A stretch of 60,847 nucleotides of DNA from a bacterium (GTDB taxonomy: Bacteria; Krumholzibacteriota; Krumholzibacteriia; JACNKJ01): NCBI GenBank assembly GCA_016873475.1, contig VGXI01000002.1, positions 1-60,847 on the forward strand. The letters run 5' to 3'. Positions within the stretch are counted from its first letter, which is position 1. The number at the start of each line of letters is the position of its first letter. A program made the position numbers and the translations under genes. The notes below the pieces were generated by a model, which was given only the letters and a program-made list of their open reading frames with translations, did no database searches and was not told the DNA's origin. Shown piece after piece: positions 25,400 to 47,980 of the stretch.

Positions 25400-25992
25400 T
25401 GCTCCGCGCTTGGCTGGTCGGGCTGTTGCTGATCGCGGCACCGAGTGCCGCCGAAGGGGCCGGCCGGCAGCTCGCGGCAGCGGCGCGCGAGCAGGTGGGC
25501 GTCACCCTGCACTACGATCCGAGCTACCGGCGCCTGGACTACCCCGGCGGCGATCCGCCTGCCGAGCGTGGCGTCTGCACGGACGTGCTCGTGCGAGCCT
25601 ACCGCCGGCTCGGCGTGGACCTGCAAGTGCTCGTGCACGAGGACATGCGCGCGGCCTGGGATGCCTACCCCAAGCTCTGGGGACTCGCGCGGCCGGACGC
25701 GAACATCGACCACCGGCGCGTGCCGAACCTGGCGACCTTCTTCGCGCGCCACGGCGAGCGGCTCGCCGTGAGCCGCGTGGCGGCCGACTATGCCGCCGGC
25801 GACCTGGTAACCTGGCGGCTGCCCTCGGGCGTGCCGCACATCGGGATCGTCTCCGATCGCGCGGCGCCGGATGGGACGCCGCTGGTGATCCACAACATCG
25901 GCGCCGGGGCGAAGGAGGAGGACCTGCTCTTTCGCTACCCGATCACGGCGCACTATCGCTATCTGCCGGAGGCGCCGGCGGTCGGCGACTAG
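25399..25992 (+). CDS. Secreted DUF1287-family protein
   Basis: ATG 25399 shares its A with the preceding TGA. Signal peptide MLRAWLVGLLLIAAPSAAEG. VTLHYDPSYRRLDYPGGDPPAERGVCTDVLVRAYR...PHIGIVSD pattern of DUF1287. Confidence 0.85.
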   Translation: MLRAWLVGLLLIAAPSAAEGAGRQLAAAAREQVGVTLHYDPSYRRLDYPGGDPPAERGVCTDVLVRAYRRLGVDLQVLVHEDMRAAWDAYPKLWGLARPDANIDHRRVPNLATFFARHGERLAVSRVAADYAAGDLVTWRLPSGVPHIGIVSDRAAPDGTPLVIHNIGAGAKEEDLLFRYPITAHYRYLPEAPAVGD

Positions 25993-26015
25993 CACCTCTG
26001 CCGCGGAGGGGGAGG

Positions 26016-26675
26016 ATGAGGATGCGCGGAAGCCACAGCAGCGAAGATCCTTTGGCGCAGGTGCGCTGGATACCGGCGGGCGAGAACCCGCTGGGGATCG
26101 AGCTGCTGGACTGTCGGCCCTTCGCCAAGACCATGCGATCCTTCTCGCAGGATCCGGACATCGCCACGCGCTTCCTCGACCAGCGCCAGGCGCTTGGCGA
26201 GGAGCATCGCGACGCTTCGCTTGCACCGGAAACGACCGCCGATTGCGCGCTGGCCTATGTCCATCGCGGCCCGACGCGTGACGGACCCCTGTTCAAGGCC
26301 GAAGCGATGGAGGATAAGTGGGACGTCTACCTCTACGATGGGCAGCTCTACTTTGCGCGCAGTTGGACGGGTGATCTCTGTCTGCGCGCGCGCATGCGCT
26401 TCAGCGAAGGGAAGGCCGAGCTGCTGGCCGTAACCGCCCGTGAGGACGCGGTGGGGGGAGACGGTCGCTACGCGGTCGCAATGGTCGACTTCCTGATCTG
26501 CAGCTATCTCTATCGCCGGGTGTCGCCGCATCCCCTGCCGACGCACCTCGGGCGCGACAAGGCCCAGCTCGCCCTCTTCTCCTTTTCGCAGCACGGTCGT
26601 TGGGGTCTTTACGGCAGCTTCGCCGATACGACGGCGCTGCCGCTCATCGATCCGGCGGCGCGGCTCGAGCCCTGA
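26016..26675 (+). CDS. Hypothetical protein (219 aa), no family recognised
   Basis: ATG 26016 after GGAGGGGGAGG, inside ORF 25347..26675. Last gene of the co-directional array. Confidence 0.7.
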   Translation: MRMRGSHSSEDPLAQVRWIPAGENPLGIELLDCRPFAKTMRSFSQDPDIATRFLDQRQALGEEHRDASLAPETTADCALAYVHRGPTRDGPLFKAEAMEDKWDVYLYDGQLYFARSWTGDLCLRARMRFSEGKAELLAVTAREDAVGGDGRYAVAMVDFLICSYLYRRVSPHPLPTHLGRDKAQLALFSFSQHGRWGLYGSFADTTALPLIDPAARLEP

Positions 26676-26881
26676 GGCGCCTGGAGCCGGCGGGTGACGC
26701 CGGTGCTGCAGGCGGCAGTTCCCCTGAGATCCTGGAGCTCCCGTTGCCAGAACAGCGGGTTGCCCTCGCGGCAGGAGCCTGAGTCTCCGGATCACCCCAC
26801 GCGATCGGCAAGGCCCATCGGGGTAGCTTCGAAGCCTGTGCGCAGCGGCGCGGCGGACCGGGCATGCTCTTCGCACCGCAC

Positions 26882-26910
26882 TTGTCGCGGCGCTCCCCCG
26901 GCGCTACAAT
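26882..26910 (+). promoter_or_regulatory. Candidate promoter of hicAB
   Basis: TTGTCG 26882-26887, 17 nt, TACAAT 26905-26910, 45 nt upstream of the hicA ATG. Confidence 0.5.
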
Positions 26911-26955
26911 CCCTAGCACTGCCTCCCGCGATCCATACCTAGGCTGGATCCTGGG

Positions 26956-27144
26956 ATGTTGGTTCGTGAGGTCCTGCGCCTCCTGGAGCGGGAGGGATGG
27001 CAGCTCGTACGTCAGCGGGGAAGTCACCGCCAGTTCCGTCATCCGCGCAAGCGCGGGCTGGTCACGGTGGCAGGCAAGCCAAGTGCGGACGTGGCACTAG
27101 GCACGCTGAACAGCATCCTCAAGCAGGCGGGGTTGAAGCCATGA
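26956..27144 (+). CDS. hicA: HicA toxin (mRNA interferase)
   Basis: ORF 26956..27144: MLVREVLRLLEREGWQLVRQRGSHRQFRHP...TVAGKPSADVALGTLNSILKQAGL. Confidence 0.9.
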   Translation: MLVREVLRLLEREGWQLVRQRGSHRQFRHPRKRGLVTVAGKPSADVALGTLNSILKQAGLKP

Positions 27145-27353
27145 GATTCCTGATCGTGATCGAGAAGGCCGAGCGCGGATTCTCCGCCTACTCGCCGGAT
27201 CTCCCCGGCTGCGTGGCAGCGGCAGCGACTCGCCGGGGCGTCGAGAAGGCCATGCGCGAAGCGGTCGAGTTCCACATTGAGGGGCTGCGTGAGGAAGGCT
27301 GCCGAGTCCCCACGTCGCGCAGCTACTCGACCTATGTGGAAGTACCGGCTTAG
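27141..27353 (+). CDS. hicB: HicB antitoxin
   Basis: MRFLIVIEKAERGFSAYSPDLPGCVAAAAT...AVEFHIEGLREEG from ATG 27141, with an ATGA overlap with hicA. Confidence 0.9.
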   Translation: MRFLIVIEKAERGFSAYSPDLPGCVAAAATRRGVEKAMREAVEFHIEGLREEGCRVPTSRSYSTYVEVPA

Positions 27354-27386
27354 ATTCTGGCGCCCGCGCTTACTCGGCTGACCGGT

Positions 27387-28196
27387 CTACGAGCCCTCGG
27401 CGTGTCCCGACTCGTCCCTTCTTGCCAGCCGGAGGCGTTCCAATCGGCTTCTAAGATCAGCCAGTCCTTCTTGCTTCACTGCACCGGGATACTGCCGATC
27501 TGAGGCCTCTAGGAAGCGAATCTGCGCTACCAGCCGATGTACATCTCCCGCTTTGAGGGTCGATGCCAACAGCTCCGCCACGCTTCGGTAGTTGTGGAGG
27601 AATGGTATCCCATCCAGTAGTGCGCCTCGTGTGGCGAAGAGCTCAATGTCGTCAGTTAGCGATTCACTTGCGTCTGCACCTCGGGCCTCGCAATAGAGCC
27701 CATAGCAGAGCCTCAGACATGCTAGGAACTGCATGCTGGCCCCTTCTGCCCTGCCCCATCTCCCATAGGCCGCTATCACGTCCAGGGGTGGCGAGGATAG
27801 ATTCAGGACTACCCGAAGCTCGGGCATCGCTGCCGTCAAGGCCGAGGGGAGTTCTTCCACGGTGCTGCAGTCTGGAATGCCCCGCTCGCGGAGGGTGCGG
27901 GCAAACTGCTCGAGCAGCGCATTGACTTGGCTGAGTGCAGAGTAGCGTCCGATCTTCTCGATCTCTACCCTCTGCAGAGCGATCTCCTGTAGTTGGTTCG
28001 CTATCTGCTTTCGCTGGAGCCGGATCTCCTCGGACTGCTGGCGGATGCCAGCAATTAGCCACACCACGGCGATAGCGGATGTAACAGCTGCGATGAACTC
28101 ACCGAGGTTCGCAGCCGACTCCCCGCTTGAAGCCAACGAATAGGCGAGGATCGCGACAACAAGCAGGGCTCCGGAGATCAGCCAAGCGATCTTCAT
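27387..28196 (-). CDS. Membrane-anchored coiled-coil protein, no family recognised
   Basis: [21 protein letters not shown]...[15 protein letters not shown] (two TM helices) followed by heptad-like [32 protein letters not shown] 28196-28194 overlaps the TGA of the upstream Fe-S gene (ATGA). One 60-nt line here hand-counts 34/60 G+C. Confidence 0.7.
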
Positions 28197-33256: not shown

Positions 33257-34345
33257 CTAGTGGTAGTAGTCGTCCTCGCTGCCGCCGTCGTAGTCGTCGA
33301 GGCTGGGACGGTGGTTGCCGCTGCCGTCGTCGTCCTCGCCGGCGAGGACATCTTCGAGGGAAACGAAGCGCTCATCGTCCTCGCGCTCGAACCCCTCCTC
33401 GGGTGCGGCCTCGAGCGCCCAGTCGGCCTCGGCGGGATCGGGATCGCCGACCAGGGCCGCGGCGCCCTCCAGGGCGCGCGCCTTCACCGGCACCGGCGGC
33501 GTCAGCGAGAACTCCGCGCTGCCCAGGCCGAGCGCCTGCAGCTCGTCGACGACGGCCGCTTTCAGGCTGCCCTGGCCGGCGGCGAAGGCGCCGAGCAGCT
33601 CGTCGGCCAACTCGCCGAAGGCCGTCGCCGCCAAGCCGCTGCGGTTGAACTGGTTCACGGGTCGCCCGCGCTTGGCCACCTCGGCCAGGCGCACGCTGCG
33701 GGGGATGACCGTCGTGAACACCTGACCCGCGTACTCCTCGCGCACGCGAGCGACGACATCGGCGGCCAGACGCGTGCGCGGGTCGACGAGATTGAGCACG
33801 ATGCCGAGTAGGCCGGGGATGCGCCGGCCCTGGCGGCGCATCTCATCGAGCCCGTCGAAGAGACGCGGCAGGGCGCGATAGGCCAGCTCCTCGGCCTGCA
33901 GCGGCACGAGGAAGTCGTCGGCAGCCTGGAGCGCGGCGCTCGTGAGCGCACCGAGGTTCGGCGGGCAATCGAGCAGCACGCAATCGTAGCTGCGCTTGAG
34001 TCGCTCGACCTGCGCCGCGAGGCGCTCGGGAAAGCGCTGCGCGCCATCCTGCAGCTCGCGCTCTTCCTCGCGCGACCAGACGTTGCTCGTGATGAAGTCC
34101 AGGTTCGCCGTTCCGCTTGGCTGGATCGCGGCGCCGGGATCGCCCTCGAGATCGAAGAAGTCGAGCAGACCGTTGTCGATGTCGAAGCGGCTCTTGCCGA
34201 AGCAGCTGACGATCCCGCACTGTGGGTCGATGCCCACGAGCAGGCAGCGCTTCCCCTTCTCGGCGAGGGTCGCCGCCAGGTTGACCGCGATGGTCGTCTT
34301 GCCGACCCCGCCCTTGGGGCAAACAACGGCGACACTCCGTCCCAT
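33257..34345 (-). CDS. ParA/MinD-family ATPase with ~110-aa acidic C-terminal extension
   Basis: ORF 33257..34345. Deviant Walker [20 protein letters not shown]. The tail ends ...[47 protein letters not shown]. No ParB-like neighbour. Confidence 0.9.
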
Positions 34346-34828: not shown

Positions 34829-37018
34829 GTGGCGGAACTCCGGTTTCGGATCAAGGGCATGAGTTGCGCCTCCTGCGTCGGCAAGGTGGAGAAGGCGCTG
34901 GCCGGCATTCCGGGCGTGGAACAGGTGAGCGTCAACCTGGCGACGGCCGAGGCCCGGGTCCAGGGACGGGGCCACCTGCCCGCCCTGGGGCTGCTCGAGG
35001 CCGTCCACCGGATCGGCTTCGAGGCCGACCCCCTGCTGGACGACGAGTTCCTCCACGAGCCGCCCTCGGCGATCGAGGACCCGGCCGCCCTGCGCCGCGA
35101 CCTCTGGCTGGCGCTGCCGCTCGCCGCCCTGCTCATGGTCCTCGGCATGTTCGGGCCCATGGACCTGCGCTGGGGACTCGTTCAGGGGATCCTGGCCACG
35201 GTGGTGCTGGCCTGGCCCGGCCGCCGCTTCTTTCGCCGCGCCTGGCAGCTCGCCCGCCACCGGCAGAGCGCCATGGAGACCCTGATCGCTCTCGGCACCG
35301 GCGCCGCCTGGCTGAGCTCCTGGACCAGCCTGCTGCTCGGCGCGCAGCAGGGCGGGCACGCCAGCCACCTCTACTTCGAGAGCGCGGGGGTGATCATCGC
35401 CCTCGTCCTGCTCGGCCGGAGCCTGGAGGGCGGCGCCCGCGACCGCGCCGCCGACTCCCTGCGCGAGCTGGCGCGCCTGCTGCCCGAGCGCGCGCTCCGG
35501 GTCAACGACGAGGGCGGCGAGGAGGAGGTTCCCACGGGCGCCGTGCGCCCAGGCGACCGCCTGCGCGTGCAGGCCGGCAGCAAGGTGCCGGTCGACGGCA
35601 GCGTCATCCTCGGCGAGGGAGCACTCGACGAGTCCATGCTCACGGGGGAGAGTCGCCAGGTGCGCCGTCAGATCGGCGAGGCGGTGACCGCGGGCACGCT
35701 GCTCGTCGACGGCTCCTTCGAGATGCGCGTCGGCGCGGTGGGGGAGCAGACCGTCCTCGCCGGCATCCTCCGCCTGGTGCGCGACGCCCAGGCCTCGAAG
35801 GCGCCCGTGCAGCGGCTGGCCGACCGGGTCGCCGGCATCTTCGTGCCGATCGTGCTCGGCCTCGCCCTGCTCACCGTGCTGCTGCACTTCGCGATCGCGC
35901 CCGAGCTGGGGGCCGTGCAGATCCTGATGCGGGGCGTCGCGGTGCTGATCATCGCCTGTCCCTGCGCGCTCGGGCTCGCCACACCGACGGCCATCCTCGT
36001 CGGCAGCGGCCTCGCCGCTCGGCACGGCATCCTCTTTCGCGAGGCCGCCAGCCTGGAGCGCTTGCAGGCCGTGCGCATCCTGGCGATGGACAAGACGGGC
36101 ACGATCACCCGCGGCCGGCCGCAGGTGGCGCGCTTCCTGCCCGTGGGCACCGAGCCGCGGGAGCAGCTGCTGCGCTTCGTCGCCGCGGCCGAGAGCGCCG
36201 TCAGCCATCCCATCGCCCAGGCCCTGCGCGACTACTGCCGGGAGCGCAGCGAGGGGACCGCCTTCGCCCTGGCCGTGGTCTCGCGCCCGGGCGGCGGCCT
36301 GCGCGCGGAGATCTCGGGCAAGCAGCTCGTGGTCGGCGCGCCCTGGTTTCTCGAGAGCGAAGGCATCGATCTCTCCGAGTCCGGCGAGCTGCTCGGCGAG
36401 CTGGAGGAGAGCGGTCTGACGCCGGTGCTGGCAGCGCTCGAGGGCCGCCTCGAGGCCGCGTTCGGCCTCGAGGACGCCCTGCGGCCGGAGGTGCCGGCCC
36501 TCGTCGCGCAGCTCAAGGCGCTGGGCATCGAGCCGCTGCTGCTGTCCGGGGATCGCCCCGAGGCGGTGCGGCGCGCGGCCGCCCAGGCGGGCATCGAGCG
36601 CTTCGCCGCCGGCCTGCGCCCCGATCAGAAGGCGCGGCGCCTGCGGGAGGCCTCGCCGGAGGGCATCGGCGTCGCCATGCTCGGCGACGGCGTCAACGAC
36701 GCACCGGCGCTCGCCGCCGCCGAGGTCGGCATCGCCCTGGCGAGCGGCAGCGATCTCGCCATGGCCAGCGCGCCGGTGACACTGGTGCACGGTCACCTCG
36801 GCCGCGTGCTCGACGCCTTCCGCCTCTCCGCGCGCACCCTGCGCACCATCCGCGAGAACCTCTTCTGGGCCTTCGTCTACAACGTGCTCGCGATTCCCCT
36901 GGCCGCATTCGGCGTCCTGAACCCGATGATCGCCGCCGCCGCGATGGCGGCGAGCAGCCTCTTCGTCGTTTCCAACAGCCTGCGGCTGCGCGCCTTCAGC
37001 TTCGGCAAGGGGCGCTGA
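34829..37018 (+). CDS. copA: Copper-translocating P1B-type ATPase
   Basis: ORF 34829..37018 (GTG start). HMA domain GMSCASCVGKVE, CPC motif IIACPCALGLATP, DKTGTIT, GDGVNDAPAL. Confidence 0.95.
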   Translation: MAELRFRIKGMSCASCVGKVEKALAGIPGVEQVSVNLATAEARVQGRGHLPALGLLEAVHRIGFEADPLLDDEFLHEPPSAIEDPAALRRDLWLALPLAALLMVLGMFGPMDLRWGLVQGILATVVLAWPGRRFFRRAWQLARHRQSAMETLIALGTGAAWLSSWTSLLLGAQQGGHASHLYFESAGVIIALVLLGRSLEGGARDRAADSLRELARLLPERALRVNDEGGEEEVPTGAVRPGDRLRVQAGSKVPVDGSVILGEGALDESMLTGESRQVRRQIGEAVTAGTLLVDGSFEMRVGAVGEQTVLAGILRLVRDAQASKAPVQRLADRVAGIFVPIVLGLALLTVLLHFAIAPELGAVQILMRGVAVLIIACPCALGLATPTAILVGSGLAARHGILFREAASLERLQAVRILAMDKTGTITRGRPQVARFLPVGTEPREQLLRFVAAAESAVSHPIAQALRDYCRERSEGTAFALAVVSRPGGGLRAEISGKQLVVGAPWFLESEGIDLSESGELLGELEESGLTPVLAALEGRLEAAFGLEDALRPEVPALVAQLKALGIEPLLLSGDRPEAVRRAAAQAGIERFAAGLRPDQKARRLREASPEGIGVAMLGDGVNDAPALAAAEVGIALASGSDLAMASAPVTLVHGHLGRVLDAFRLSARTLRTIRENLFWAFVYNVLAIPLAAFGVLNPMIAAAAMAASSLFVVSNSLRLRAFSFGKGR

Positions 37019-37095
37019 TGCGGCTGCGTTGACAGGGGCGCCGACCTGTGTTTCCCTGCAGCGGAGCCCGAACCCCGACCGCCTGGAGAAGAACC

Positions 37096-37329
37096 ATGGC
37101 CGAGCCGACTGTCAGCATCGAGTTCTGCGTCGTTTGAGACTACGAGCCCCGCGCCGCCAGGCTGGCGGCCGAGATCCAGACGCGCTTCGGGGTTACGCCT
37201 GCACTCCTCCGTTCGGCGGGCGGCGTCTTCGAGGTCGTGGTGAACGGGAAGACCGTGTTCTCCAAGAGAGCGCTCGGGCGCTTTCCTGAGGACGAGGAGA
37301 TCTTCGCGGCGATCGCCGCCGAGCGCTAG
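37096..37329 (+). CDS. SelW/Rdx-family selenoprotein with in-frame UGA (Sec14): MAEPTVSIEFCVVUDYEPRAARLAAEIQTRFGVTPALLRSAGGVFEVVVNGKTVFSKRALGRFPEDEEIFAAIAAER
   Basis: Absent from the ORF track. ATG 37096 with GGAGAA 5 nt upstream. TGA 37135-37137 is the second redox residue of a CxxU motif. The frame stays open to TAG 37327-37329, and Rdx-family hallmarks (IEFC..., GGVFEV, GRFPE) lie on both sides of the TGA. Confidence 0.8.
37153..37169 (+). promoter_or_regulatory. Candidate bacterial SECIS hairpin
   Basis: gccgcca 37153-37159 pairs with tggcggc 37163-37169 around a G-rich apical GGC. The hairpin starts 15 nt after the UGA. A full bSECIS model was not run. Confidence 0.5.
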
Positions 37330-37332
37330 CCG

Positions 37333-38529
37333 ATGGTCAACAACAAGGCCTTCTATCGCAAGCTGGACGGGCTGCTCGGCAGCATCGTCGTCGAACGCAG
37401 TCCGCACCACGACCTCGCGCGCGCGGTCGACCAGATCGTCCAGGCCTTCCGGGAGGACCTCGGCACGATCAGCGGCCGGCTCTACGTGCTCCACGACGGC
37501 AGCTACTACCTGCGCCACAGCACGGCGCCGCTGGGCGAGGACCTCAAGGGCTTTGCAATCCCGGCGAGCTACCCGCCGATCCAGGCCATCCTCAGCGAAC
37601 GAATCGTCGCCGTCCACGAGGACTTCCCGGGCTACGATCCCGCACTGGAGCGCCGCCTTGGCGTCAGCAACTTCGCGGCCTTCGCGCTCGACTCCGGCCG
37701 CTATCTCGTCTCCTTCGGACTCGACAGCCAGGCCGAGGAAGAGGCCCTGCTCTTCGCGCTCGGCGCCATCCAGCACAGCCTCAGCCTGCGCCTGAAGCAG
37801 GCGGCGATGGTGGCGGAGATCAACGAGGCGGAGGCGATCCAGCTCAGCCTCTTGCCCAGCCATCCGCCGCGCTTCGAAGGTTTCGACATCAGCGCCCGCA
37901 CGCACGCCGCCGAGGCGACCGAGGTGGGCGGCGACATCCACGACTTCATGGATCTGGCGCCCGATGCGCTGGGCATCGCCGTCGGCGACGCCAGCGGCCA
38001 CGGCCTGCCCGCGGCCCTGCAGGCGCGGGATGTCGTGACCGGCCTGCGCATGGGCGTCGAGAAGGAGATGAAGATCACGGCGGTGATCCGCCGGCTCAAC
38101 CAGGTCATCCACGCGAGCCGCCTGGCGACGCGCTTCGTGAGCCTGTTCTATGCGGAGCTGGAGCGCAACGGGACCCTGCTCTACGTGAACGCCGGCCACT
38201 GCGAGCCGATGGTCATCGGCCCCGGGCAGGCCGTGGAGCGGCTGACCATCGGCGGCCCCATCCTCGGCCCGCGGGGGGACGCGATCTACCAGCGCGGCTT
38301 CAGCAACCTGACGCCAGGCCGCCAGCTCCTCCTGTTCACGGACGGGCTCATCGAGCGCCGGCGCGGCGAGGAGGAGTGGGGCGAGACCCGCCTCCTCGAG
38401 GTGTTTCGGGCCTGCTTCCACCTGTCATCGGCCGAGACGGTCGAGCGCATCGTCAGCGAGGCCCGCGCCTTCGGCGGGGCCGCGCCCTGGGAAGACGACC
38501 TCACCGTTCTGGTCATCAAGCCCGTCTGA
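37333..38529 (+). CDS. GAF-domain SpoIIE/PP2C-family protein phosphatase (RsbU-like)
   Basis: ORF 37333..38529, with its ATG 3 nt after the selenoprotein TAG. QLSLLP, GGDIHDF, GIAVGDASGHGLPAAL, LLLFTDGLIE. Confidence 0.9.
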   Translation: MVNNKAFYRKLDGLLGSIVVERSPHHDLARAVDQIVQAFREDLGTISGRLYVLHDGSYYLRHSTAPLGEDLKGFAIPASYPPIQAILSERIVAVHEDFPGYDPALERRLGVSNFAAFALDSGRYLVSFGLDSQAEEEALLFALGAIQHSLSLRLKQAAMVAEINEAEAIQLSLLPSHPPRFEGFDISARTHAAEATEVGGDIHDFMDLAPDALGIAVGDASGHGLPAALQARDVVTGLRMGVEKEMKITAVIRRLNQVIHASRLATRFVSLFYAELERNGTLLYVNAGHCEPMVIGPGQAVERLTIGGPILGPRGDAIYQRGFSNLTPGRQLLLFTDGLIERRRGEEEWGETRLLEVFRACFHLSSAETVERIVSEARAFGGAAPWEDDLTVLVIKPV

Positions 38530-38647: not shown

Positions 38648-39094
38648 GTGCTCTACTCGAAGGCCGCCGAGTACGCAATTCGCGCCATGGTCTATCTGTC
38701 CGAGCAGCCCCCGGGCGAGCTCATCCAGCTCAAGGATGTCGCCGAGAAGGAGAACATCCCCTTCCATTTCCTGGCCAAGACGATGCAGATCCTCTCGCGC
38801 AAGGGCCTTGTGCGCTCCCACCGCGGCCCGCGGGGGGGCTTCTGCCTCTCGCGCAAGCCGGAGGAGATCACGCTCTACGACATCGTCGACCCCATCGACC
38901 ACATCGCCAACTACGACGAGATCTGCATTCTGGGCATCGACGTTTGCAGTGACGAGGCGGCCTGCCCTCTGCACGATGACTGGACGAAGATCCGCGCCCA
39001 GATCCGTCTGACCCTCGAGGGCAAGAGCCTGGCACAGATGGTCGGGAAGCTCGAGGAGAAGCGCCGGATCGTCGCCGAGAAGGGGTTGCAGTAG
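38648..39094 (+). CDS. Rrf2-family transcriptional regulator with three-Cys putative Fe-S ligand motif
   Basis: ORF 38648..39094 (GTG, GGAGGA RBS). MLYSKAAEYAIRAMVYL..., Cys pattern CILGIDVCSDEAACPLH. Confidence 0.92.
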   Translation: MLYSKAAEYAIRAMVYLSEQPPGELIQLKDVAEKENIPFHFLAKTMQILSRKGLVRSHRGPRGGFCLSRKPEEITLYDIVDPIDHIANYDEICILGIDVCSDEAACPLHDDWTKIRAQIRLTLEGKSLAQMVGKLEEKRRIVAEKGLQ

Positions 39095-39107
39095 CCCCCT
39101 TTTTTTG
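39081..39107 (+). terminator. Small intrinsic terminator of the Rrf2 gene
   Basis: agggg 39081-39085 pairs with cccct 39095-39100 region around a 9-nt loop, followed by T7 (39101-39107). It overlaps the stop codon. Confidence 0.5.
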
Positions 39108-41057: not shown

Positions 41058-41145
41058 GTTTGGCTCCCACCCCCCCTGCCGCTAGGATCCAGAGCGCGTG
41101 CCGCCCGCTGGCGGCGCCCCCAACCCGCGAACGCGAGGAGCGGCG

Positions 41146-41379
41146 ATGCGGCCCTTCCTTTCCCCGCGCCCAGCGGCGCTGCTGGTGCTGCTGATCACGC
41201 TCGCGCTGGCCGGCTGCAGCCTGGGCACCGAGGCCTGGGAGCGCGATCTGCACGCGGATCCCGAGATGGCGCTCGACCACGACGCCATCGACCAGGCGCT
41301 CGACGAGCACATCTACTTCAGCAAGGAGGCCTCCAGCGGCGGCCAGGGCTTCGGAGGTGGCGGCTGTGGCTGCAACTAG
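41146..41379 (+). CDS. DUF4266-family lipoprotein
   Basis: MRPFLSPRPAALLVLLITLALAGCS lipobox from ATG 41146. Characteristic end HIYFSKEASSGGQGFGGGGCGCN. Confidence 0.85.
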   Translation: MRPFLSPRPAALLVLLITLALAGCSLGTEAWERDLHADPEMALDHDAIDQALDEHIYFSKEASSGGQGFGGGGCGCN

Positions 41380-42655
41380 GCCGATCAGCGGCGCGCTCGC
41401 TGCGGCCTGCGCGCTCGCCGGCGTCAGTGCTCCCTCGCGCGCCGTGGAAGTCGAGACCGCCGTCATGGTCTACAGCGAGGCCGATCGCGTGGCCGCGCTC
41501 GAGCCGGTCATCCGGATGACGCACGCGCTCTCACCGACCCGCACGCTCGGCCTCAAGCTCGTGCTCGACACGCTGACGGGCGCCTCGCCCAACGGCGCCG
41601 TGCCGAGCACGCAGGCGCAGACCTTCACGCGGCCCTCGGGCAACAGCAGCTACACGGCGCCGCCGAACACCACGCCGCTCGACGACGCCTTCAGCGACCG
41701 GCGCGGCGAGCTCGATCTCAGTCTCGAGCAGCGCTACGGGCTCCTCACGCGCGCGAGTTACGGCGTGCACGGCTCGGTCGAGCAGGACTACCTCTCCGGC
41801 GGCGCCAGTCTCGTCATCAAGCGCGAGTACGATCGGCGCAATCGCCTGCTCACGCTCGGCCTCTCGGTCGGCTTCGACAGCGTGCGGCCGCAGGGGGGGG
41901 CGCCCGCTGCCCTCACCGAGATGGCGGCGCCCGGCGAGGGCGAGGACGATGATCTGCGCGAGGACGACGAGGGCGAGGGCGGCGGCAGCGAGCTGAAGAC
42001 GACCGCCGACCTCCTGCTCGGGCTCACGCAGATCGTCGACCGGAGCACGGTGCTGCAGCTCAACTACTCGGCGTGCCGGGCGAGCGGCTACCTGAGCGAT
42101 CCCTACAAGTTCGTCAGCGTGGTCCAGTCCGGGCTGGGCACGGCGCCGGGCGAACCCCTGCGGCAGCTCTACGAGGGCCGACCCGACACGCGGCTCAAGC
42201 AGAGCCTCTACGGGCGGGTGAAGCGGCACCTGGGCCGGGACATCCTCGATCTCTCGTACCGCTACCTCTGGGACGATTGGGGCATCCGTTCCCAGACCGC
42301 CGAGCTGCACTACCACCTGCGCGCCTGGGAAGCGCTGGGCATCGAGCCGCAGTTGCGGTGGTACACGCAGACGGCGGCCGATTTCTATCGGCACAGCCTG
42401 GTCGACGGCGAGGTGCTGCCGGCCGACGCCTCCGCCGACCCGCGCCTGGCCGCCCTCACGGCCTGGACCTACGGTCTCAAGCTGCGGCACCGGCTCGCGA
42501 GCGGCCACGAGCTCAGCCTGCGCGGTGAACTCTACCGGCAGGGTGGCGAGGACCATCCCGCCGACGCCATCGGCCAGCTCCGCCGGCAGGACCTCTTCCC
42601 CGACCTCGAGGCCTTCATGATCCAGCTGGCCTACCGCTTCGACTTCACGCCCTGA
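41357..42655 (+). CDS. DUF3570-family (predicted outer-membrane) protein carrying a DTLTGAS motif
   Basis: ORF 41357..42655 (GTG start, overlaps the DUF4266 gene by 23 nt). Family assigned from overall pattern and the conserved DUF4266/ApbE neighbourhood (memory). Motif at codons 71-77 = nt 41567-41587. Confidence 0.8.
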   Translation: MAAVAATRPISGALAAACALAGVSAPSRAVEVETAVMVYSEADRVAALEPVIRMTHALSPTRTLGLKLVLDTLTGASPNGAVPSTQAQTFTRPSGNSSYTAPPNTTPLDDAFSDRRGELDLSLEQRYGLLTRASYGVHGSVEQDYLSGGASLVIKREYDRRNRLLTLGLSVGFDSVRPQGGAPAALTEMAAPGEGEDDDLREDDEGEGGGSELKTTADLLLGLTQIVDRSTVLQLNYSACRASGYLSDPYKFVSVVQSGLGTAPGEPLRQLYEGRPDTRLKQSLYGRVKRHLGRDILDLSYRYLWDDWGIRSQTAELHYHLRAWEALGIEPQLRWYTQTAADFYRHSLVDGEVLPADASADPRLAALTAWTYGLKLRHRLASGHELSLRGELYRQGGEDHPADAIGQLRRQDLFPDLEAFMIQLAYRFDFTP

Positions 42656-42663
42656 GGTCGGCC

Positions 42664-43608
42664 ATGAGGGAGCACAGGGAGTCGTCGTCTCCCAGCCCCG
42701 CGCCGGGGGAGGCGCCGGCGGCCGCGGCGCTCACTGGCGAGCGCGGCGATGGCGTCTGGATCCTGCGTTTCGCGGCGATGGCCGGCCCCTGCGAGATCCA
42801 GCTCGCGCTGGCCGACGGGGAGGAGGCGACGGCCCTCGGGCGCGCGGCAGCGGCGGAAGCCTGGCGCATCGAAGCCAAGTACAGCCGCTACCGGGCGGAC
42901 AGCGCCGTCTCGCGGATCAACGCGGCAGGCGGCGCGCCGATCGCCGTGGATGCGGAAACCGCCGGGCTGCTCGACCTTGCCGCCCGCTGCCACGAGTTGA
43001 GCGGGGGGCTCTTCGATGTCACGGCCGGCGTGCTGCGCCGGGTCTGGCGCTTCGATGGCGAGGGTCGACTGCCCCCGCGGGCCCAGGTGAAAGCGCTGCT
43101 GCCCCTCGTGGGCTGGGAGAAGCTGCGCTGGGAGCCACCCACGCTCACGCTGCCGGCCGGGATGGAGATCGATCTCGGCGGTCTCGGCAAGGAGTACGCG
43201 GTCGATCGCTGCCTGGCCCTGATCGGAGCCTGCACGGCGGCGCCCTGCCTCGTCAACTTCGGGGGCGACCTGCGCGTGAGCGGACCGCGGGCCGGCGAGC
43301 GGCCCTGGCGCGTCGCGCTCGAGGACCCCGCGCGGCCCGAGACGCCGCTCCTGCGTCTGGATCTGCGCCGCGGTGCGCTCGCGACCAGCGGCGATAGCCG
43401 TCGGTTCCTGCTCCACCGCGGCCGCCGCTACGCGCACGTGCTCAACCCGCATACCGGTTGGCCGGTGAGCGGCGCGCCGCGCTCGGTGAGCGTCGCCGCG
43501 CCGAGTTGCCTCGAGGCCGGCCTCCACGCGACGCTCGCCCTGCTGCATGGCCGACGCGCCGCGGCCTATCTCGCGGCTCAGGGCCATCGCCACTGGATCG
43601 TGGCCTAG
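42664..43608 (+). CDS. apbE: FAD:protein FMN transferase
   Basis: ORF 42664..43608. YSRYRADSAVSRIN, GGLFDVTAG, IDLGGLGKEYAVDR. Confidence 0.9.
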   Translation: MREHRESSSPSPAPGEAPAAAALTGERGDGVWILRFAAMAGPCEIQLALADGEEATALGRAAAAEAWRIEAKYSRYRADSAVSRINAAGGAPIAVDAETAGLLDLAARCHELSGGLFDVTAGVLRRVWRFDGEGRLPPRAQVKALLPLVGWEKLRWEPPTLTLPAGMEIDLGGLGKEYAVDRCLALIGACTAAPCLVNFGGDLRVSGPRAGERPWRVALEDPARPETPLLRLDLRRGALATSGDSRRFLLHRGRRYAHVLNPHTGWPVSGAPRSVSVAAPSCLEAGLHATLALLHGRRAAAYLAAQGHRHWIVA

Positions 43609-43795
43609 GCCGCGCCGGCCGGGCGAGGAGAGCCACGGTACCCCCTCGGCGAGGCGCGGGCGGCGCCCAGGCCGAAGGCGACGGCGGCGACCCACCGCGC
43701 CTCGCCTGTGGCAGCCTCGACAGCGAGCAGCTGGTCCTGCTAAGCTTGGAACGCCAGCTGAGCCTCGGCTGCCGCCGCTCGCGAAAGGATGCCCG

Positions 43796-45442
43796 ATGAG
43801 ACCGCGACTTGCCGCCTGCCTCGGCCTGTTCACCGTGCTGGTCCCCACTGCGCTGCCCGCGGGCGAACTGCACCCGGGCCTGCGCGAACGCCTGGCCCAG
43901 GCGCCGGCCGGCGCGACCCTGCCCGTGATCCTGCACCTGGAGGCACAGCTCGACCTGCGGCCCTACACGGGGCGCGACGCGGCCGGCCAGCTCATTCGCG
44001 ATCTGCAGGCGCTGGCCGCCCAGAGCCAGGCGCCCCTGCTCGCCGCCCTCGCCGATCGCGGCCTGGCGGTCGGGGCGAGACCCTTCTGGATCGACAACTG
44101 TATCGCCCTGCGGGCCACGCCGGCACAAATCGAGGCTCTGCGTGCGCTTCCCGGCCTGGCACGGCTCGACTACGACGAGCCGGTAGTGGGCGAGTTCGCC
44201 CTGCCCGCTGAGGGCGGGCGCACGCCGGTCTGGAGCCAGGTGATCATCCGGGCGCCGGAGGTCTGGAGCGCCCACGGCCTGGACGGCAGCGGCATCGTGC
44301 TGGGCTCCATGGACACGGGCGTGGACATTGGCCATCCGGCCCTGGCCGGCAAGTGGCGCGGCGGCGACAACTCCTGGCTCGATCTCGTGAACGGCCAGCC
44401 GTCCCCCTACGACGACCACGGCCACGGCACCCACACGATCGGCACGATGGTCGGCGGCGACGGCCTCGGCCCCTTCACCACCGACATCGGCACGGCGCCC
44501 GGCGCGCAGTTCATCGCGGTCAAGGTGCTGGACGAGGACAACAGCTTCGGCAGCACGAGCATCGTGATCGCGGGCGCGCAGTGGATCCTCGATCCCGACG
44601 GCGATCCGGACAGCGATGACTTCCCCCAGATCGTGAACAACAGCTGGTACTTCTTCAGCCAGACTTACGACGGCTACCACGCGACGGTGGCCGTCTGGCG
44701 GGCCGCCGGCATCCTGCCCGTCTTCTGCCTGGGCAACAGCGGGCCCAATGCGGCCACCACGCATCCGCCCGGCAACTACGACAACACCCTCGGCGTGGGC
44801 GCCACGACGAGCAGCGATCTCATCTGGACCTTCAGCTCGCGGGGACCCGCCCCGGCGGGCTGGGCCTTTCCGGCTGACGGCCGCAAGCCGGACCTCTCGG
44901 CGCCCGGCGCCTCCGTGCTGTCCTCGCTGCCCGGCGGCGGCTACACCGCCTGGAGCGGCACGTCGATGGCGGCGCCCCACGTGAGCGCAACGGCGGCGCT
45001 GATGCTGCAGGGGAACGCCGACCTGGGTCCTGCCCAGCTCATCGGCGCCTTGAATGGCAGCGCCGCCGATCTCGGCGCCGCCGGCTACGACCACAGCTTC
45101 GGCTACGGCCGCCTGGACGCCTATGCCGCGGTGACGGCGGCCATCTCGCCCTCGGCGGCGGATCCGGTCTCCACCGCCGCGCCGGCCTTGAGCGCCCATC
45201 CCAATCCCTTCGGCGAGCGTGTGCGTCTCGACTTCGCCTTGCCGCAGGGGCAGGCGGCGCGGGTGGGCATCTACGATCTCCAAGGCCGCCTCCAGCGGAG
45301 CCTCGTGGCCGAGGCCGCGGCCGGCAACCTCCTCTGGGACGGGCGCGACAGCGCGGGCCGTGCGCTGCCCGCGGGCCTTTACCTTGCGCGGCTCGACGGC
45401 GGCAAGACAGGCGCTGTCTGTCGCCTGCTTCGCCTGCGCTGA
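43796..45442 (+). CDS. Secreted subtilisin-family (S8) serine protease with FlgD-Ig/T9SS-like C-terminal domain
   Basis: MRPRLAACLGLFTVLVP signal peptide from ATG 43796 inside ORF 43547..45442. Catalytic triad contexts GSMDTGVD, HGHGTHTIGT, SGTSMAAPHVSA. C-terminus PNPFGERVRLDF...IYDLQGR...WDGRD...LPAGLYLARL. Confidence 0.92.
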   Translation: MRPRLAACLGLFTVLVPTALPAGELHPGLRERLAQAPAGATLPVILHLEAQLDLRPYTGRDAAGQLIRDLQALAAQSQAPLLAALADRGLAVGARPFWIDNCIALRATPAQIEALRALPGLARLDYDEPVVGEFALPAEGGRTPVWSQVIIRAPEVWSAHGLDGSGIVLGSMDTGVDIGHPALAGKWRGGDNSWLDLVNGQPSPYDDHGHGTHTIGTMVGGDGLGPFTTDIGTAPGAQFIAVKVLDEDNSFGSTSIVIAGAQWILDPDGDPDSDDFPQIVNNSWYFFSQTYDGYHATVAVWRAAGILPVFCLGNSGPNAATTHPPGNYDNTLGVGATTSSDLIWTFSSRGPAPAGWAFPADGRKPDLSAPGASVLSSLPGGGYTAWSGTSMAAPHVSATAALMLQGNADLGPAQLIGALNGSAADLGAAGYDHSFGYGRLDAYAAVTAAISPSAADPVSTAAPALSAHPNPFGERVRLDFALPQGQAARVGIYDLQGRLQRSLVAEAAAGNLLWDGRDSAGRALPAGLYLARLDGGKTGAVCRLLRLR

Positions 45443-45469
45443 GACCGGCGCGCACGGGACGCCGGGCGC

Positions 45470-45498
45470 TTGCGTCAAGGCGCGGCTTGCATTATAAC
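45470..45498 (+). promoter_or_regulatory. Candidate promoter of leuS
   Basis: TTGCGT 45470-45475, 17 nt, TATAAC 45493-45498. Confidence 0.5.
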
Positions 45499-45556
45499 GC
45501 CGCCTATTCCGGGCCCCGGCGGCCCGGCCCGCCGACCGCACCGGCAAGGACGACCG

Positions 45557-47980
<2,424 letters not shown>

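Follow-up and report, generated by a model that had tools for sequence, protein, structure and literature searches.

A probable SelW-like selenoprotein gene with an in-frame UGA and an adjoining SECIS-type hairpin in an uncultured, high-GC bacterial lineage

Introduction

Among bacterial selenocysteine insertion elements the paradigm is the SECIS of Escherichia coli fdhF, a hairpin that lies in the coding sequence immediately 3' of the UGA and is read by SelB; its small apical loop carries a conserved G. The bacterial SelW-like selenoproteins (Pfam PF10262, formerly PF05169; NCBIfam TIGR02174; Zhang, Gladyshev; PMC1088965, PMC1794560, PMC2398784) are proteins of about 75 residues in which a CxxU motif ends the N-terminal strand and GGxFEV and GRFPE motifs complete the set of hallmarks. 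Their selenocysteine (Sec) is encoded by UGA, a small SECIS hairpin lies directly downstream inside the open reading frame (ORF), few or no Cys forms occur among close relatives, and their function is presumed to be redox. That bacteria have CxxU proteins of this kind with SECIS elements, and have them in abundance, is established (PMC1088965, PMC2398784, PMC1794560). In published marine metagenome surveys the SelW-like family ranks first in abundance among prokaryotic selenoprotein families, in GOS with 427 Sec against 56 Cys forms (PMC2398784), and few or no Cys homologues are found in Sec-decoding organisms (PMC1794560).

Two further groups belong to the same Rdx family. The Cys-type bacterial Rdx proteins of solved structure (Atu0228 2FA8, 2OJL, SAV_2001 3DEX, 2OKA, 2OBK, 2P0G) share the domain, and their alignment over residues 3-70 brings the redox motifs into register, but they are about 105 residues long, carry CxxC (e.g. 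CTQC), and have neither a UGA nor any need of a SECIS. Eukaryotic selenoprotein W, SelT, SelH and MIEN1 (C17orf37, 2LJK) share the Rdx fold family and the CxxU/CxxC motif; they differ in relying on a 3'-UTR SECIS with a kink-turn and SBP2, in contrast to the in-ORF hairpin described below.

Here we analyse a locus in a stretch of 60,847 nucleotides (hereafter the window) that very probably encodes a genuine SelW-like selenoprotein and carries a functional SECIS for it. Knowledge of the family, of the CxxU motif and of the in-ORF SECIS dates from 2004-2005, and the gene adds a member to the family without raising a new question. It shows no essential difference from the described bacterial members; what sets this copy apart is its origin in an uncultured 71%-GC lineage and an ATPase/phosphatase context that is kept in its own lineage only.

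Results

A reading frame that continues through one TGA

The frame opens at ATG 37096, runs through 13 sense codons (MAEPTVSIEFCVV) to TGA at 37135-37137, and continues through 63 sense codons to TAG at 37327-37329 (Table 1). With the TGA read as Sec, the translation is MAEPTVSIEFCVVUDYEPRAARLAAEIQTRFGVTPALLRSAGGVFEVVVNGKTVFSKRALGRFPEDEEIFAAIAAER. An earlier reading of this DNA, made from the sequence alone (the sequence-only reading), had given the same start, upstream GGAGAA, codon counts, TGA, TAG and translation, all of which match the sequence exactly; the 7-bp hairpin that it placed 15 nt past the UGA is present, and it was correct that the ORF list shows a single entry at the locus on the + strand, an out-of-frame ORF of 86 aa (37029..37289). 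GC at third codon positions (GC3) is 0.87 in the SelW frame (0.85 before the TGA, 0.89 after it), a value typical for genes of the 71%-GC window, as against 0.48 in the out-of-frame ORF.

Table 1. Features of the SelW-like locus, with coordinates in the window unless a database locus is named
Feature	Position	Strand	Details
Heavy-metal (HMA-domain) P-type ATPase gene	34829..37018	+	Pfam E1-E2_ATPase, Hydrolase, HMA; ends 77 nt upstream of the SelW-like gene
Shine-Dalgarno-like GGAGAA	37085..37090	+	5 nt upstream of ATG 37096; read directly
SelW-like (Rdx family) gene, very probably a selenoprotein gene	37096..37329	+	77 aa, predicted Sec at residue 14
CxxU redox motif TGC GTC GTT TGA (Cys11-Val-Val-Sec14)	37126..37137	+	Cys and TGA columns invariant in 37 distinct related sequences
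UGA, predicted selenocysteine codon	37135..37137	+	TGA kept at the same codon across related loci
Recoding unit in full (UGA, 15-nt spacer, hairpin)	37135..37172	+	Match of covariance model R1, 51.1 bits, E 3.2e-9
Putative bacterial SECIS-type hairpin GCCGCCA-GGC-UGGCGGC	37153..37169	+	Stem 37153-37159 with 37163-37169, loop GGC 37160-37162
SpoIIE/PP2C-type phosphatase gene	37333..38529	+	Pfam PF07228, 133.5 bits; starts 3 nt past the SelW-like stop
Mis-annotated public copies	L018 825-917; L049-L054 (e.g. L050 10001-10168); L048 91-324		

The Rdx family match spans the TGA

Profile searches, run with Sec (U) replaced by C, place the product in the Rdx family. Pfam Rdx (PF10262) matches residues 5-73 over profile positions 1-72 of 74 with 67.6 bits against a cut-off of 22.6 (E-value 1e-18), and NCBIfam TIGR02174 (CXXU_selWTH) matches with 57.3 bits (cut-off 34.2). 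The match runs across the TGA, and since the 63 residues after it score 46.9 bits by themselves, about 21 bits of the family signal come from the 13 codons that precede it. The family assignment of the sequence-only reading, which had pointed to the Rdx profile as a check, is borne out by both models scoring above cut-off with the CxxU motif in register. The equivalog model NF041051 (SelTWH_Campy) reaches 86.3 bits, slightly short of its curated cut-off of 88, and the product is therefore filed under the broader subfamily.

The solved Rdx structures 2FA8, 2OJL, 3DEX, 2OKA, 2OBK and 2P0G match at E 4e-7 to 1e-3, and their CxxC, as in 2FA8 and 2OJL, aligns with CVVU (Cys11-Val-Val-Sec14). Overall similarity to these Cys-type proteins is weak (about 33 bits). 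The human MIEN1 structure 2LJK matches as well (E 6e-7). Resemblance to the solved Rdx structures (E 4e-7) supports a predicted thioredoxin-like fold for the product.

TGA is kept at the CxxU codon in 47 related loci

A genome scan with one genome per species returned 17 related loci, from Krumholzibacteriia, Planctomycetota, Rokuibacteriota, Methylomirabilia, Thermodesulfobacteriota and Desulfobulbaceae, Desulfuromusa, Fidelibacterota, Gemmatimonadota, Anaerolineales and Zixiibacteriota; a metagenome scan with the single protein as query added 23 more full-length loci. Every one of these (40/40, from about ten phyla) has TGA at the CxxU codon, as do six fully syntenic orthologous contigs and a homologue from a 34%-GC organism (L048), for a total of 47 related loci in which the site is covered, copies of the window being left out. 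Because the peptide patterns that recovered these loci lie downstream of that codon, the all-TGA result is not a search artefact. In contigs from four independent samples the gene is the same, base for base, as in the window.

The sequence-only reading had proposed comparing orthologous loci for alternation of Cys and Sec at this codon; no such alternation appears among close relatives, in which the codon is TGA in all but one CGC variant. The rarity of Cys forms in this all-TGA picture agrees with the published description of the family (PMC1794560). The sole relative without TGA (L047 583-819; JGI Ga0436464_0665737) has CGC (Arg) at the Sec position, giving CVIR; its protein is 56% identical and its hairpin has decayed to 4/7 pairs. 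This copy may be decaying or repurposed, or the CGC may reflect a sequencing error in a contig of 940 nt.

Both sides of the TGA evolve as coding sequence

Purifying selection acts downstream of the TGA: between the window and a syntenic orthologue, the 63 codons give dS 0.68, dN 0.20 and dN/dS 0.29, and the differences by codon position number 24 at the third, 10 at the first and 12 at the second. Across 37 sequences, third positions show about twice the variability of first and second ones within the blocks GGVFEV and RFPEDEEIF, and likewise in the 7 codons before the TGA; since the pattern holds on both sides, we take the two halves to be translated as one protein. Here too the comparison agrees with the sequence-only reading, which had treated the region past the TGA as coding.

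These results bear directly on whether the locus is a pseudogene, in which the second active-site Cys codon (TGC or TGT) has mutated to TGA and left only a 13-residue stub. Such a change takes a single base, gene callers do take this TGA as a stop, and the window shows no Sec machinery; yet TGA occupies the codon in all 47 related loci from about ten phyla, the part beyond it keeps a dN/dS of 0.29 and a GC3 of 0.89, a covarying hairpin (described below) is maintained beside it, and four independent samples yielded identical contigs. The comparative data effectively refute a pseudogene, which we regard as extremely improbable.

The hairpin covaries and keeps its distance from the UGA

The hairpin sits within the coding sequence and starts exactly 15 nt past the UGA, an offset shared by all 36 other distinct sequences, which align with the window without gaps (37 distinct sequences in total; helix at columns 28-34 with 38-44). 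As a single-sequence feature it is unexceptional. The + strand of the window holds 116 perfect 7-bp hairpins (1 per 525 nt), 18 of 563 TGA triplets have one 10-25 nt downstream, and the local fold energy does not stand out from that of shuffles (z-score -0.21). The hairpin alone was rejected as evidence on account of this z-score and of how common such hairpins are in 71%-GC DNA, and because it does no better than chance by itself, the case was built on homology and comparison, which are both strong and take the features in combination far beyond chance.

Among the 37 sequences, 88.4% of helix cells are paired, a share that falls to 26-51% once the 3' partner is slid by 1-3 columns. Compensatory changes occur in three of the seven pairs (C:G to U:A, G:C to U:A, and C:G to U:A or A:U), two-sided changes fall in 23 cells against 7.9 +/- 1.7 in shuffles, and the covariation score is 0.275 against 0.126 +/- 0.014 for shuffles and at most 0.10 in slid controls. 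The pair at columns 30/42, which switches from C:G to U:A, joins two third-codon positions; two sequences show the switch as a fully synonymous change (GCC/GCG to GCU/GCA) and in three it goes with Ala to Glu, and, given these third positions and the two fully synonymous cases, it is not readily attributed to protein constraint. RNAalifold recovers the same helix unaided. The loop reads GGC, GUC or GUU, its first G (column 35) being invariant in 37/37 sequences, and a small apical loop with a conserved G is a criterion for bacterial SECIS elements (PMC1088965).

No Rfam family matches the hairpin at gathering scores, nor at E up to 10 over 37080-37340, and sX12 and che1 were set aside as chance matches; this says only that no curated model covers such a short in-ORF hairpin.

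A covariance model (R1) was built from the 36 other sequences, with the window excluded, and spans the UGA, the spacer and the hairpin. It has a single significant match in the 60,847 bases of both strands (Table 1), the next best being the palindromic stem of the hairpin itself, read on the opposite strand, with 13.8 bits. The syntenic orthologue scores 52.7 bits and the 34%-GC homologue (L048) 37.3 bits; TGA forms score 37-53 bits and the CGC (Arg) variant (L047) no more than 11.8, a control that consists of one case. The sequence-only reading had taken the hairpin for a SECIS element and suggested a covariance-model search of the UGA region; the covariation and the one match at the site uphold its interpretation. 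The hairpin would act as a bacterial SECIS element, a role that the comparison supports and in which it would be bound by SelB.

The same data decide whether the locus could be a product of chance, a spurious ORF in high-GC DNA with an accidental stop and hairpin and nothing expressed. Long spurious ORFs are plentiful in such DNA, and the hairpin count and z-score given above would suit this explanation. It is refuted by the Pfam match (E-value 1e-18), by the independently built model with its single 51-bit match and by the dN/dS against an orthologue whose synteny and sequence are conserved, which leaves chance with practically no probability.

UGA is an ordinary stop elsewhere in the window

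Among the confident ORFs of the window, 20/36 end in TGA, including the ATPase gene directly upstream of the SelW-like gene, and the other 16 end in TAG. Because TGA is the commonest ordinary stop, there is no genome-wide reassignment of UGA. Neither the window nor 17 related loci yielded a tRNA-Sec, tblastn with E. coli SelA, SelB and SelD gave no match in the window or in 428 kb of related loci, and Pfam annotation of about 47 window ORFs showed no sel genes. As neither the window nor the related loci hold selA, selB, selD or tRNA-Sec, the Sec-decoding trait of the genome has the standing of an inference; the gene marks the uncultured Latescibacteria-related lineage as a probable selenium user. 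Two scans with GC3 filters found no further TGA-interrupted coding region in the window; such scans are insensitive to short N-terminal parts, since they also missed the SelW-like gene itself.

It is conceivable that the UGA is read through without Sec, for instance through near-cognate insertion of Trp or Cys or through a suppressor tRNA, with a hairpin that merely stimulates the event and a CxxW or CxxC product. The inferred status of the Sec machinery leaves room for this, and one public translation (P0003) has W at the position, though by choice of translation table over a real TGA. Several observations point the other way: the family is an established Sec family with CxxU (PMC1088965, PMC1794560); the hairpin bears the SECIS hallmarks of a small apical loop, an invariant G and a fixed distance from the UGA; TGA as the most used ordinary stop in the window speaks against general suppression; and TGC, the simpler solution if Cys were needed, is used by no close relative. 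We consider read-through without Sec very unlikely.

Public records hold truncated copies

Because the in-frame UGA is treated as a stop, standard gene callers yield stubs. On contigs identical to the window only a stub of 30 aa is called, and the NCBI orthologues carry one of 55 aa named 'SelT/SelW/SelH family protein', as the sequence-only reading had anticipated when it warned that an ordinary gene caller would miss or mis-call the locus. The nearest database protein (P0001; 73% identical, 55 aa) is a truncated call of a true orthologue, and the Trp in the ENA record P0003 was noted above. A search of 5.8 billion proteins returned four matches only, two of them truncated. Owing to these stubs and to mistranslation as Trp, protein databases systematically under-represent the SelW-like family, and the main value of the present finding is the annotation fix.

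Gene order around the locus is kept within one lineage

Orthologues were found in the NCBI MAGs GCA_020633715.1 and GCA_020633725.1 (labelled 'Candidatus Latescibacteria') and in several ENA assemblies. Their gene order matches the window gene for gene: CCG/Fer4, POR, POR, Fer4, ParA-like, P-type ATPase, Rdx, SpoIIE, Rrf2, MoCF, MutY, DUF4266, DUF3570, ApbE, LeuRS. The orthologue DNA reads GAGGAGG…GTG…ATC GAG TTT TGC GTC GTT TGA AAC TAC…, with a GTG start, and its hairpin is GCCGCCA-GUU-UGGCGGC.

The 3-nt junction between the stop TAG and the phosphatase ATG (window 37327-37335) is repeated in the syntenic orthologues and is not kept in more distant loci. The SelW-like gene and the phosphatase gene are probably co-transcribed and perhaps translationally coupled; after the phosphatase gene come an Rrf2 regulator gene and, at 39082-39098, a terminator-like site. 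The phosphatase itself has 398 aa, of which about 200 N-terminal residues have no Pfam match. The P-type ATPase is kept in the orthologues and also lies near the SelW-like gene in two other loci (L005, L012). Elsewhere the neighbours differ, with a Zn-ADH and a HAD hydrolase in three loci (L001, L002, L015) and PilZ in Desulfobulbia loci. A conserved operon partner was rejected for this variation between lineages, and since the P-type ATPase/PP2C arrangement is kept within the lineage only, no conserved functional partner can be claimed.

Discussion

On the evidence assembled here, the locus is very probably a SelW-like selenoprotein gene, and the comparative data disfavour a pseudogene, read-through without Sec and chance alike. 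The product would be a small thioredoxin-fold protein whose CxxU active site (Cys11, Sec14) ends the first beta-strand. By analogy with E. coli fdhF, SelB·GTP·Sec-tRNA(Sec) would be recruited by the hairpin that starts 15 nt past the UGA, and SelB would deliver Sec to the ribosomal A site in competition with release factor 2. Cys11 and Sec14 could then cycle between a selenol/thiol pair and a selenenylsulfide, and because the two residues can form such a bond, the product is most likely a thiol-dependent oxidoreductase. The analogy with fdhF concerns position and apical loop. The sequence of the hairpin is another one, without an evident bulged U, and it has a stem of 6-7 bp and a loop of 3 nt (or 5 nt).

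The lineage-specific neighbourhood, downstream of a heavy-metal P-type ATPase, invites speculation that the SelW-like protein does not act on its own as a redox protein but is the sensing partner of a module with the SpoIIE/PP2C phosphatase, to which the 3-nt gap would couple it in translation, and the Rrf2 regulator, its selenol/thiol state gating phosphatase signalling under metal or oxidative stress. We think this very unlikely; if true, the phosphatase-gating module would be the first physiological role for a bacterial SelW-like protein.

Further features of the neighbourhood were observed in passing. A gene for a ParA-like (AAA_31/CbiA) ATPase lies about 1.5-2.7 kb from the SelW-like gene, with differing genes in between, in the window lineage (33257-34345, - strand), in Krumholzibacteriia-type loci and in Desulfobulbia loci (positions in the related loci: L001 3480-4763; L002 3470-4750; L015 3506-4267; L005 3975-4904, - strand; L010 3626-4567, - strand); with two to three independent lineages only, this proximity may be weak residual synteny or coincidence. 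The region 25992-28193 of the window is ORF-poor, with a GC content of 58-68% against 71%, and contains a HicB-like antitoxin ORF (26997-27353) where the syntenic orthologues have a gene for a VIT1 protein of 230 aa; as VIT1 is absent from the window, the region has the appearance of a small variable island where synteny breaks. A subtilase (Peptidase_S8) gene at 43547-45442 (+ strand), between ApbE and LeuRS, is absent from the syntenic orthologue, and the nucleotide alignment with the orthologue breaks at 43622-45557. Downstream of MutY, the conserved cluster of DUF4266, DUF3570 and ApbE (flavin transferase) occupies 41098-43608 (+ strand) and is also present in the orthologues.
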